IMG/VR virus record: IMGVR_UViG_2651869755_000006
Span: 1-23,254 of that record
Length of the DNA stretch: 23,254 nt
Strand: one strand, 5' to 3'
Source: a virus
Lineage: Duplodnaviria > Heunggongvirae > Uroviricota > Caudoviricetes
Below, piece by piece: positions 15,090 through 20,225 of this stretch. The notes beneath the pieces are model-generated. The model saw only the letters and a program-made list of their open reading frames with translations. It ran no database searches and was not told the origin of the DNA. The position numbers and the translations under genes were made by a program. Position 1 is the first letter of the stretch. Each line of letters begins with the position of its first letter.

Positions 15090-15095
15090 GCATGT

Positions 15096-15125
15096 AAAAA
15101 GGCCCCAACACATGTGCGTGGGGCC
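15096..15125 (-). terminator. Minus-strand terminator-like hairpin upstream of the holin gene
   Basis: Minus-strand RNA: GGCCCCA-(11-nt loop)-UGGGGCC followed by UUUUUAC. Confidence 0.35.
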
Positions 15126-15325
15126 TGAGAGTATACATGGTTTCAGTCAACTGCATGGTGCCGGGTGCCTCCCGGTGAATTCAGTACCAGCACCTGAATC
15201 CGCGATTATCCCATATACCTACTCGCTGATTGCCCCTCCGCACAGGGGGATTCACCATGCCAGTTTCTTTTAACAAACTCCCCGCAAAACAGACAACTGT
15301 CAACCGTCTGAATTGTGAGACATTT

Positions 15326-15365: not shown

Positions 15366-15442
15366 TGGCGCGTTGTACTGGATTCGAACCAGTGACCGAT
15401 TGCTTAGAAGGCAATTGCTCTGTCCGGTTGAGCTAACAACGC
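15366..15442 (-). tRNA. tRNA-Arg, anticodon UCU (reads AGA)
   Basis: Hand-folded cloverleaf: acceptor GCGTTGT/ACAACGC + G + CCA, D-arm GCTC/GAGC, anticodon stem ATTGC/GCAAT with loop CTTCTAA, T-arm ACTGG-TTCGAAT-CCAGT. Confidence 0.8.
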
Positions 15443-15455
15443 AGGGTACAGATAA

Positions 15456-15532
15456 TGGACCGCCATCGAGGACTCGACCCCCGCGCAACCAGCTTCGAAG
15501 GCTGGTGCTCTATCCTGATGAGCTAATGGCGG
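15456..15532 (-). tRNA. tRNA-Arg-like, anticodon read as UCG (CGA), with non-canonical features
   Basis: Hand-folded: acceptor CCGCCAT/ATGGCGG (C1-G72) + T73 + CCA, D-arm GCTC/GAGC, anticodon stem CCAGC/GCTGG with loop CTTCGAA, T-loop GTCGAGT (G where T54 is expected). Confidence 0.55.
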
Positions 15533-15539
15533 TATGTGA

Positions 15540-15615
15540 TGGTGGCCCTTGCTGGATTTGAACCAGCGACCTGGCGATTATGAGTCGCTCGCTCTCACCT
15601 CTGAGCTAAAGGGCC
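15540..15615 (-). tRNA. tRNA-Ile2-like, anticodon CAU (ileX/ileZ-type, probably lysidine-modified to read AUA)
   Basis: Hand-folded: GGCCCTT acceptor, anticodon loop CTCATAA, T-arm GCTGG-TTCAAAT-CCAGC, ends GGGCCACCA; close to E. coli ileX as I recall it. Confidence 0.75.
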
Positions 15616-18216: not shown

Positions 18217-18288
18217 CGGTTGTCTCTGCTGGCGCAGCAGGTGCCAGTTGTTCAGGCTGGCGTGCGGCAATATTGTCTCTGATTTCTG

Positions 18289-18316
18289 TTGTCGTCAACA
18301 GGCAGCGTGCTATCAT
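18289..18316 (+). promoter_or_regulatory. Candidate sigma-70 promoter for parDE
   Basis: TTGTCG (-35), 16-nt spacer, TATCAT (-10), about 35 nt upstream of the parD start. Confidence 0.35.
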
Positions 18317-18351
18317 CGAATAGTGTTCTATCCTACTCCGTGAGGTTTACC

Positions 18352-18609
18352 ATGCGTACAACCCAACAATTCAGCATTACATTAACTAACGAGATGGCTG
18401 ACATGGTGCGCGCCCGTGTGGCTTCCGGTGCCTATGCTTCAGAAAGCGAGGTCATTCGTGAAGGGCTTCGCGCACTGAATGAGCGCGATAAAGCAATCGA
18501 AGCGTGGTTAACGCATTCAGCCGCCCCCTCTCTTGATTCTATCCGCGAAAATCCAAACAACGGACGCTCCATTTCACAGGTTCGCGCCGCGATTCGATCC
18601 GGGAAGTAA
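18352..18609 (+). CDS. parD: ParD-family ribbon-helix-helix antitoxin, 85 aa
   Basis: GAGG Shine-Dalgarno 7 nt before the ATG at 18352; ...RARVASGAYASESEVIREGLRALNERDKAIEAWL... matches the ParD motif (G-Y-SASEV-R-LR-L); immediately followed by a ParE-like ORF. Confidence 0.7.
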   Translation: MRTTQQFSITLTNEMADMVRARVASGAYASESEVIREGLRALNERDKAIEAWLTHSAAPSLDSIRENPNNGRSISQVRAAIRSGK

Positions 18610-18614
18610 TCTGC

Positions 18615-18914
18615 ATGACATTTGAAGTCATCATTACCCCCGAGGCCGAACAGCAGATAATAAACCTGCACGGATATATAACGGAGAAAGCAGGAAGCGT
18701 CATTGCTGACAATTATGCCAATGCGCTTCTTGATTATCTTGATGGGTTTTCTACATTCCCACATCGGGGCAATAAACGCGATGATATTCGCCAGGGAATG
18801 CGAGTAACTCACTTCCGCCACAGAACGATTATTGCTTTTGCCGTTGATGGCAATAAAGTCTTTATCGCTGGCGTTTACCATGGAGGGCAAAGTTATGAAT
18901 CTGACTTTTTATAG
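18615..18914 (+). CDS. parE: ParE/RelE-superfamily toxin, 99 aa
   Basis: Starts 5 nt after the ParD stop; C-terminal ...RVTHFRHRTIIAFAVDGNKVFIAGVYHGGQSYESDFL resembles the ParE/RelE fold signature. Confidence 0.65.
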   Translation: MTFEVIITPEAEQQIINLHGYITEKAGSVIADNYANALLDYLDGFSTFPHRGNKRDDIRQGMRVTHFRHRTIIAFAVDGNKVFIAGVYHGGQSYESDFL

Positions 18915-18975
18915 TTTATATTTTCACTAACAAAAAACTTAAATAACCAAGAAACACTTATAAAAGGGCTTCTAA

Positions 18976-19329
18976 ATGAATAAAACAATTTGTTTTCTAT
19001 TGGTTTTTGCAATTTCAGGATGCGTCAACCCTTATAACTACAGAGAAGAACAAAATGTTATTATCTCGTTCAAAACAAATTCTCCACCACAAGAAATACA
19101 AGAATGCATTCTCAGTGAGTGGCAGCGTACACCTCTCTTAGCCACTATCACGTCTCAAAAAATTGGCAAGTATTACAGCGTATTAGCGGTTGCAGATAAT
19201 GCCGACATTTATAAGTTGGCAGATGGTTCTACTATCATTGATTTTTATTCCCTTCGAGGGGGCTTAGACCCCACCAATGGGAAAAGCAAGAGGATTCAGG
19301 GAATTAAATCATGTATTAGCACTAAATAA
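18976..19329 (+). CDS. Putative lipoprotein of unknown function in an AT-rich cargo segment, 117 aa
   Basis: MNKTICFLLVFAISGC signal peptide with lipobox Cys; gene and its 61-bp leader are visibly more AT-rich than flanking phage DNA. Confidence 0.6.
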   Translation: MNKTICFLLVFAISGCVNPYNYREEQNVIISFKTNSPPQEIQECILSEWQRTPLLATITSQKIGKYYSVLAVADNADIYKLADGSTIIDFYSLRGGLDPTNGKSKRIQGIKSCISTK

Positions 19330-19404
19330 TCATCAGTTCGAACCCAGAAACAGCCAAATAGATTTTATCTCAGGTGCGTTGAGGATGCCTGACACATCAG
19401 AGGT

Positions 19405-19426
19405 GGCGAGGGATTTCTCCCCCGCC
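19405..19426. terminator. Hairpin in the convergent gap between the lipoprotein gene and hok
   Basis: GGCGAGGG-ATTTCT-CCCCCGCC inverted repeat, 8 nt past the hok stop and 75 nt past the lipoprotein stop; no strong U-tract on either side. Confidence 0.3.
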
Positions 19427-19433
19427 TGGTCTC

Positions 19434-19589
19434 TTACTCCTCAGGTTCGTAAGCTGTGAAGACAGTGACCTCCGTCTGGCCGGTTCGGATTCGTACCTCG
19501 CAGAGGTCTTTCCTCGTTACCAGTGCCGTCACAATGACGGTAATACAGATGACGATCAGGGCGACTAACATCGCCTTTTGCTGCTTCAT
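19434..19589 (-). CDS. hok: Hok-family type I toxin, 51 aa
   Basis: MKQQKAMLVALIVICITVIVTALVTRKDLCEVRIRTGQTEVTVFTAYEPEE is near-identical to E. coli Hok/Gef family proteins as I recall them; AAGGAG Shine-Dalgarno 9 nt upstream. Confidence 0.85.
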   Translation of the reverse strand: MKQQKAMLVALIVICITVIVTALVTRKDLCEVRIRTGQTEVTVFTAYEPEE

Positions 19590-19646
19590 AGCCTGCTTCT
19601 CCTTGCCTTTCGGCGCGTAAGAGGCTAACCTAGATTTGCCGTTCAT
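19434..19646 (-). CDS. mok: Mok-like in-frame upstream reading frame overlapping hok, 70 aa
   Basis: In-frame ATG 19 codons upstream of the hok start, as in chromosomal mokC/hokC pairs. Confidence 0.5.
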   Translation of the reverse strand: MNGKSRLASYAPKGKEKQAMKQQKAMLVALIVICITVIVTALVTRKDLCEVRIRTGQTEVTVFTAYEPEE

Positions 19647-19800
19647 AGATTGAGCCTCAGATTAATGTTAAGCGTCTTGCCGGACGCGTAATGTTAACTG
19701 GGGCTTTTCTCTATCTGCCTTTTGGTGTTCATGCCTGAGACAGATAGCCTCAAGCACCCGCAGCAATTCTACTTAACTCTCCTTTTCCCGCAAACCGTTT

Positions 19801-19884
19801 TTATCCCCAGCGGCAAATCGAATACACCATCAGCGTCACCGCCATCGCAATTCCTACCGTTGTTAATGCTTCAGGCCAGGTCAT
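19801..19884 (-). CDS. Small hydrophobic peptide, 27 aa, coupled to the upstream gene
   Basis: Reads [27 protein letters not shown]; ATGA overlap with the stop of the 114-aa gene; GGAGG 11 nt upstream. Below the ORF-track size cut-off. Confidence 0.25.
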
Positions 19885-20225
19885 CGTAAAATATCCTCCA
19901 CGCTTATCAGTCCGTTCCGCTCCAGATAACTCATCGCCTTATCCGGTAATTTGCAGTCTGGCTTCGCTTTCCTCAGTTGCCAGGTTAACTGCTTTACCAG
20001 CATGGTTAACTCATCGACCAGACGCTGATATCCCACTGGTTTGTATTCATGCAATTTACCGGCTGGCTCTGCTGCCAGCGATACCAGTGCGATTTCCAGA
20101 ACAGCAATATCCATCTTATATGTGCGGATGATGTCATGGTCGATTGTACCCGGTATGCACAGTCTCTGTGCTTCAATAGTCTCCTCTGCGTGAGCTATTA
20201 ACTGCTCTCTGGTAAAAGTCGTCAT
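19881..20225 (-). CDS. Hypothetical early protein, 114 aa
   Basis: ORF with ATGA overlap to the upstream 55-aa ORF; N-terminus resembles that ORF. Confidence 0.55.

Follow-up and report, generated by a model that had tools for sequence, protein, structure and literature searches.

A small toxin gene of the hok type, convergent with a parDE toxin-antitoxin pair, raises two questions: whether it belongs to a complete type I toxin-antitoxin locus, and whether its encounter with a type II system makes that locus anything new. The window, by which we mean the whole 23,254-nt stretch of DNA that was analysed, is a lambdoid prophage with tail, head, terminase and lysis genes, a tRNA cluster, Q, RusA, DUF968/YdfU, the hok region and nin-type genes. 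Within it, positions 19373..19799 most probably constitute an intact type I toxin-antitoxin module, hok/mok/sok, that belongs to the hokD/hokW subgroup, with a mechanism that can be transferred from its relatives. The prophage is one of E. coli, and the module sits in its nin region. The first-pass annotation had placed the locus at 19434-19800; hok is indeed there, but the 3' UTR down to 19373, with its 3' stem-loop and fbi box, also belongs to the locus, and the functional unit is 19373..19799. The sequence is free of IS elements, frameshifts and truncations, unlike the damaged K-12 copies hokC, which has IS186 at its 3' end, and hokD, which is leaderless. It is an ordinary, complete copy of an already known element and holds nothing new, because 933W already has the element annotated, a relative with 93% identity has been characterised, the enrichment of hok genes in prophages is known (preprint 10.1101/2025.08.07.668861), and the allele is found in ~30% of complete E. 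coli genomes. The main uncertainty concerns the function of the module and not its identity.

The coding part of the module lies on the minus strand and consists of the following features:

19589..19434, minus strand: hok toxin gene, 51 aa, product MKQQKAMLVALIVICITVIVTALVTRKDLCEVRIRTGQTEVTVFTAYEPEE
19436..19434, minus strand: hok stop codon
19604..19599, minus strand: SD of hok, AAGGAG
19646..19434, minus strand: mok-type ORF of 70 codons in the hok frame, starting 19 codons ahead of the hok ATG
19658..19655, minus strand: SD-mok, GAGG, 8 nt before the mok ATG

The 51-aa product had been proposed as a Hok-family toxin, and the profile searches agree. It matches Pfam HOK_GEF (PF01848) with E=2.9e-22 and 78.4 bits (cut-off 22) and PHROG 251, 'MokW-like host killing', with E=5e-32; it is 94% identical to K-12 HokD (RelF) and 86% identical to 933W HokW. 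These matches place it in Hok/Gef, a family of small (~50 aa) single-pass membrane toxins. The NCBIfam Hok models score the protein under their cut-off (46.8 against 73); they cover other subgroups, and the Pfam and PHROG matches are decisive. In a genome that is identical across window positions 19330..19800, PGAP labels the ORF hokD. The proposed in-frame, Mok-like start upstream of hok is found at the ATG at 19646. It has its own SD and is arranged just as mokW is annotated in 933W and mokC in K-12, and translational coupling to hok is predicted. The mok of plasmid R1 likewise starts 19 codons upstream of hok, and its GAGG motif has been shown to be necessary (PMC9841398). Across the six loci that we aligned, the sequence GAGGC in the SD-mok region is invariant. 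We considered whether an in-frame mok is an unusual trait of this copy and rejected the idea, as it is the annotated state of both mokW and mokC.

One codon of hok falls in a sequence context of separate note. At 19448..19451 on the minus strand, the UAC codon for Tyr47 is followed by G, which gives UACG, the context in which TadA edits A to I (Tyr to Cys). Such editing has been reported for hokB and, according to a preprint (10.1101/2025.08.07.668861), also for the corresponding cysteine position of hokC, hokD and hokE. An anticodon-arm-like local fold at this UACG is not seen in the global MFE structure.

Upstream of hok, the leader was identified by covariance model. In a scan of the whole window, positions 19759..19584 on the minus strand match Rfam RF01794 over the full model (1-157) with 111.1 bits (gathering 59) and E=7.6e-25. 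Despite the family name 'sok', the match is in the sense of the hok mRNA and ends at the hok ATG. The model also hits the hok-sense strand in K-12 hokC, whose annotated sokC runs the other way, and likewise in 933W, Pantoea, an R1-type IncF plasmid and a copy on a phage-plasmid; it gives no match in the leaderless K-12 hokD. Given this same-strand behaviour in hokC, the match is evidence for a hok leader, and Sok corresponds to its reverse complement. The covariance-model search suggested earlier therefore succeeds (111 bits), and what it identifies is the hok leader on the minus strand, not the Sok strand. An untranslated leader of about 150 nt had been expected; the leader exists, but its length is 170 nt when measured from G19759, its predicted 5' end, to the hok ATG, or 113 nt to the mok ATG.

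The analysis shows the sequence elements of the module, their conservation and their predicted alternative folds. The elements of the hok transcript are:

19766..19793, minus strand: predicted hok promoter, with -35 TTGCGG at 19793..19788, a 16-nt spacer and -10 TAGAAT at 19771..19766
19373..19759, minus strand: predicted full-length hok/mok mRNA, 387 nt, from tac to fbi
19759..19748, minus strand: tac (translational activator) box GGGUGCUUGAGG, at the mRNA 5' end
19708..19700, minus strand: ucb / anti-SD box AAAAGCCCC, in which AGCCCC is invariant in six loci
19426..19405, minus strand: 3' stem-loop GGCGGGGGAGAAAUCCCUCGCC, presumed to shield the end of the mRNA once it has been trimmed to its active form
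19384..19373, minus strand: fbi (fold-back inhibition) box CCUCAACGCACC, which pairs with tac

The 5' end of the mRNA was placed from position 1 of the Rfam model, and its predicted 3' limit is the end of fbi, which coincides with a homology breakpoint. The predicted start, G19759, lies 7 nt downstream of the hok -10 element. The promoter is a weak match to the consensus; 933W, K-12 hokC, pE92-3, Pantoea and the R1-type locus all have their -10 element at the same position. A 27-aa hydrophobic ORF (19801..19884, minus strand) ends 7 nt upstream of the hok -35 element; its start overlaps (ATGA) the stop of a 114-aa gene (19881..20225), and the homology to 933W spans it. A PHROG search with this ORF returned no match.

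With tac, ucb, SD-mok, the 3' stem-loop and fbi, all classical elements of a hok mRNA are present. The fbi box is conserved in 933W, K-12 hokD, pE92-3 and Pantoea, and the R1 counterpart of the 3' stem-loop is necessary for mRNA stability (PMC9841398). The full-length RNA (19759..19355) is predicted to fold with -149.5 kcal/mol, z = -6.6 relative to shuffled sequences, into a structure in which tac and fbi close the molecule over a long range and ucb pairs with, and thereby masks, the SD-mok region. By partition function (19759..19373), the closure comprises 11 tac-fbi pairs, each with p = 0.97-1.0. A different partner for tac, UCAGGCAUCC at 19392..19383, was preferred over fbi when tac was matched against the 3' region with RNAduplex (-19.2 kcal/mol); it was overruled by the partition function (tac-fbi p>0.97), on which basis fbi was kept at 19384..19373. 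When the 3' end is trimmed (19759..19395), the predicted structure changes to a stem of tac with ucb, together with a GAGGCU...AGCCUC hairpin, the target of Sok. The tac-ucb stem, an inner hairpin and the target hairpin are retained in the consensus fold of six leaders, in which five pairs carry compensatory changes. Closure of the 5' and 3' ends is also predicted in 933W, the phage-plasmid copy, Pantoea and the R1-type locus, and where tac is of the GGCGC (R1) type instead of the GGGUGC type, the U-A pair that it forms with fbi becomes C-G, a compensatory change. The predicted folding of the window RNA thus reproduces the closed-to-open switch of hok mRNA that has been described for R1 (PMC9841398).

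On the opposite strand, the antisense gene is represented by two features:

19603..19631, plus strand: predicted sok promoter, with -35 TTGCCT at 19603..19608, a 17-nt spacer and -10 TAACCT at 19626..19631
19638..19708, plus strand: putative Sok antisense RNA, ~71 nt, mapped from the sokW annotation of 933W through the 93%-identical alignment

The promoter sequence had been given correctly in the first-pass annotation, but at about 19606..19634, a shift of 3 nt from its true position. It occupies the position of the R1-type promoter TTGCGC-17-TATCCT and of TTGACC in hokC, and it matches the consensus at 7 of 12 positions. Both hexamers are identical to those of sokW, and the spacer differs from that of 933W by one substitution. 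A generic scan of 19250..19900 on both strands for sigma-70 promoters and terminators gave no matches. We did not count this result against either the sok or the hok promoter, since both are of known weak-consensus types and their poor consensus matches explain why the scan reports neither; the support for them comes from homology and not from consensus strength, and both are best described as predicted. The earlier proposal of a plus-strand Sok gene is in keeping with these predictions, as the candidate -10 element TAACCT is the one mutated in a promoter-less sokW construct. The putative Sok begins with GCCGUUCAU at its 5' end and overlaps the mok start by 9 nt, like sokC and mokC in K-12. 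Its predicted fold (-31.4 kcal/mol, z = -5.2) starts with 9-13 single-stranded nt at the 5' end, continues as a long hairpin and finishes in a CUUUU tail.

The closest relative that has been studied experimentally is hokW-mokW-sokW of 933W and of Sp5 (VT2-Sakai), which is 93% identical in nucleotide sequence over window positions 19373..19800 and shares the mok geometry, the sok -35 and -10 elements, tac, ucb, fbi and an 18-nt extension of the ucb/Sok hairpin. In Sp5, HokW is toxic, and sokW neutralises it when transcribed from the sokW promoter itself (Takada et al. 2021, PMC8621323). Protection is lost in a promoter-less sokW mutant, in which primer YO-421 changes CTAACCTA, the same -10 as in the window (PMC8621323), and it depends partly on RNase III and Hfq (PMC8621323). 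Upon induction of the prophage, sokW is depleted and HokW then appears in the inner membrane (PMC8621323); deletion of hokW-sokW delays lysis and halves the phage yield (PMC8621323). The pair is an experimentally established type I toxin-antitoxin system, dependent on RNase III and Hfq, that assists lysis on induction (PMC8621323). The two loci occupy different positions in their phages: 933W hokW lies near attR, beyond the tail genes, whereas hok in the window sits within the nin region, with the replication genes on one side and DUF968/RusA/Q on the other.

Differences from 933W are concentrated in only one block of 12-15 nt, which covers mok codons 2-6 and also the 5' end of Sok. At these codons, which include the first nucleotides of Sok, the window has AACGGCAAATCT and 933W has CTGAACACATGT, encoding MNGKS and MLNTC, respectively. 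Five of the six aligned loci differ from one another in this block, 933W hokW and K-12 hokC being alike, while the boxes on either side of it are invariant. This pattern may reflect diversification of the recognition between Sok and its target, and recognition may be allele-specific. Such differences could matter for cross-talk where a cell carries several hok copies, and diversity of this kind would be expected of the family.

The comparison with chromosomal hok loci that the first-pass annotation had advised was made with those of K-12. The closest Hok protein, HokD (RelF), is encoded in the Qin prophage, in the same surroundings as in the window, with ydfU/DUF968 and Q downstream, and it shares the 3' UTR, the 3' stem-loop and fbi. 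However, homology to K-12 hokD covers window positions 19373..19603 only. Beyond that point relBE stands where tac, ucb, the start of mok and the -10 element of sok would be, and hokD comes third in the relBE operon, whereas the window holds the complete autonomous form. The contrast that had been drawn with relBE-hokD is thus borne out, as hokD is without these four elements and has no Rfam match, and relBE-hokD of K-12 is a derived, truncated form of the complete module seen in the window. The type II neighbour also differs: relBE in K-12, and in the window parDE, downstream of hok and convergent with it. The leader architecture matches that of K-12 hokC (gef)-mokC-sokC, with an RF01794 score of 118 bits and mokC in frame; hokC, in turn, has IS186 just downstream, has lost fbi and is without the 18-nt hairpin extension. 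The hok/mok/sok (parB) locus that plasmid R1 and its IncF relatives carry has the same order of elements (promoter, tac, ucb, SD-mok, mok, sok promoter, hok, 3' stem-loop and fbi) and the same tac-fbi closure of a ~390-nt mRNA. It is plasmid-borne and distant in sequence (RF01794 87 bits in the R1-type locus; HokW is 44% identical to R1 Hok), and its tac reads GGCGC where that of the window reads GGGUGC, a difference compensated in fbi.

For transcription, processing, toxicity and a role in prophage addiction and/or as a help to lysis, we draw on homology, transferring the mechanism from plasmid R1 hok/sok, for which it is established, and Sp5 hokW-sokW. Both of these systems have been shown to have a toxic Hok that Sok neutralises. 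By analogy, a weak constitutive promoter would give a stable mRNA of ~390 nt, which would be locked by pairing of tac at its 5' end with fbi at its 3' end, with ucb hiding the mok ribosome-binding site. Slow trimming of the 3' end to the 3' stem-loop would remove fbi and permit refolding, upon which tac would pair with ucb and the mok start region would be shown in a hairpin. The unstable Sok, made from the opposite strand, would bind this region via its 5' tail and block translation of mok and of the coupled hok, and the Sok-mRNA duplex would be marked for RNase III. If Sok were not replenished, Hok would be made and would depolarise the inner membrane. The supply of Sok could fail through loss of the prophage, shut-off of transcription or prophage induction, the last of which has been shown for Sp5.

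That the window copy is active is extrapolated from hokW-sokW, because some intact chromosomal hok loci have been reported not to mediate post-segregational killing (10.1101/2025.08.07.668861), and an intact hok locus does not guarantee activity. The locus could be structurally intact but phenotypically silent, with Hok never released under natural conditions, and be carried as a neutral passenger of the prophage and not as an addiction module or lysis helper. We consider this unlikely, though less so than the other alternatives. Intact chromosomal hokA, hokB and hokC are reported to have given neither post-segregational killing nor activation by rifampicin (10.1101/2025.08.07.668861). The Tyr47 codon with its following G is in the TadA-editing context, and editing there may be required to supply the second cysteine for full toxicity. 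Insertions of IS elements in sister copies indicate that loss of the module is tolerated. On the other hand, the closest relative that has been tested, hokW-sokW, is toxic, neutralised by sokW and induced with the prophage, and every regulatory box is under apparent constraint across divergent loci. An intact module that would behave like hokW-sokW is the reading we prefer.

Downstream of this module, and reading towards it, are the genes of a second toxin-antitoxin system:

18267..19372, plus strand: variable-slot cassette, outside the module, convergent with hok
18352..18609, plus strand: parD, PF03693 ParD_antitoxin 32.1 bits (against 21) and TIGR02606 53.8 (against 46.2)
18615..18914, plus strand: parE, PF05016 ParE_toxin 38.3 bits (against 23)
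18976..19329, plus strand: lipoprotein-like ORF, 117 aa, with a signal peptide and the lipobox FAISG/C

The parD and parE genes are separated by 5 nt and encode a type II pair of ParD (RHH) and ParE. The PHROGs of the cassette are 6494, 5232 and 914. The last of these, with function unassigned in PHROG, is matched by the lipoprotein-like ORF with E=3e-27; searches of Pfam and NCBIfam with this ORF gave no family, and it accompanies parDE in only a few genomes. The reported convergence is correct: parD, parE and the lipoprotein ORF are on the plus strand and hok is on the minus strand, with 1,295 bp from the parD start to the mok start. The description of parDE and the lipoprotein gene as an insert needs refining, and they are better regarded as one alternative filling of a variable slot. 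A simple insertion was rejected because Qin and phage 689R5 carry other DNA between the same breakpoints, namely rem in K-12 Qin (456 bp) and a different ORF in 689R5 (721 bp). By BLAST, the homology with 689R5, 933W and Qin begins exactly at 19373, the last base of fbi. In ECOR29, which is without hok, it resumes at 19800. On the left side, homology stops at 18266 for 689R5 and at 18233 for Qin. These breakpoints delimit the hok module as a discrete cassette of 427 bp, 19373..19799, and the case illustrates how hok/sok moves in this form beside a variable slot in lambdoid prophages.

The full cassette adjoins hok in 7 of 5,426 genomes. Sequence matching the cassette occurs in 365 genomes, mostly as parDE without the lipoprotein ORF. 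The convergence of parDE, the lipoprotein gene and hok is therefore a rare mosaic combination, and interaction between the neighbours is unsupported. In a sister copy of the parDE-lipoprotein-hok arrangement, in E. coli 214-4 (L005 4862..6354, equivalent to window 19631..19699), IS150 lies in the mok/sok region, a disruption that recalls the IS-disrupted hok loci of K-12.

The junction between the two systems raises the question whether their transcripts meet. In Qin and 689R5, a hairpin and T-run directly follow fbi. In the window, this terminator is replaced by the cassette, which leaves the 3' end of the mRNA uncertain. The generic scan found no terminator-like site on either strand of 19330..19430, between the lipoprotein stop at 19329 and hok. 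With the terminator removed by cassette replacement, the convergent parDE-lipoprotein transcript and the hok mRNA may overlap across 19330..19430. Plus-strand read-through could then serve as another antisense RNA, covering fbi and the 3' stem-loop, and expression of the type II toxin-antitoxin operon would be coupled to activation or decay of the type I toxin mRNA. We regard such a coupling as very improbable, and it is the sole route by which this locus could yield anything new. The plus-strand terminator fold at the lipoprotein-hok junction is no better than shuffled sequences (z = -0.12).

A wider proposal would treat hok/sok, parDE and the lipoprotein as one co-selected defence or exclusion island, cross-regulated by convergent transcription with read-through over fbi and the 3' stem-loop. 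The compactness of the junction speaks for it, with 43 nt from the lipoprotein stop to fbi and no terminator-like site on either strand, as do the loss in the window of the terminator found behind fbi in Qin and 689R5 and the recurrence of the same arrangement in seven genomes. Yet the three parts occur independently. Most of the 365 cassette-matching genomes have parDE without the lipoprotein ORF; ECOR29, the one locus of this kind that was inspected, is also without hok; and thousands of genomes have hok without the cassette. The breakpoints fall exactly at module borders, as expected for mosaic shuffling, the plus-strand fold at the junction is unremarkable (z = -0.12), and published work, in the portion available, reports that hok is not enriched near defence systems. 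We give the island scarcely any weight, and continue to regard the hok module as a self-contained cassette. That the hexamers and the ORF are chance features with no toxin-antitoxin locus behind them has practically no probability, for although the empty generic promoter and terminator scan would suit it, it is ruled out by the family matches (Rfam E=7.6e-25, Pfam E=2.9e-22), alongside 93-100% identity to annotated hok loci.

The module is common in E. coli. Using a 65-nt probe across the mok/sok block at >=95% identity, the window allele was detected in 1,633 of 5,426 complete genomes (~30%), and 4,939 genomes match the whole 471-nt region (median, 2 copies per genome). In the matched records, RefSeq/PGAP annotates the 51-aa 'hokD' CDS alone, leaving mok and sok unannotated; in the five records listed for the 65-nt probe of the sok promoter and 5' end, all of them 100% matches, the annotation at this site is 'none'. 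Coordinates for all regulatory elements of so common an allele are useful for annotation, although their practical value is limited.

Elsewhere in the window, a three-tRNA cluster is accompanied by an sRNA family. A match to Rfam STnc100 (140 bits, gathering 47) and the cluster occupy 15090..15289 and 15366..15615 on the minus strand, with the STnc100 match directly downstream of tRNAs Met-CAT, Arg-TCG and Arg-TCT, a set of the ileZ-argN-argO type, which lies downstream of Q. In GXU-23-25-310, in other respects the closest genome, another set, of four tRNAs, takes the place of these three.
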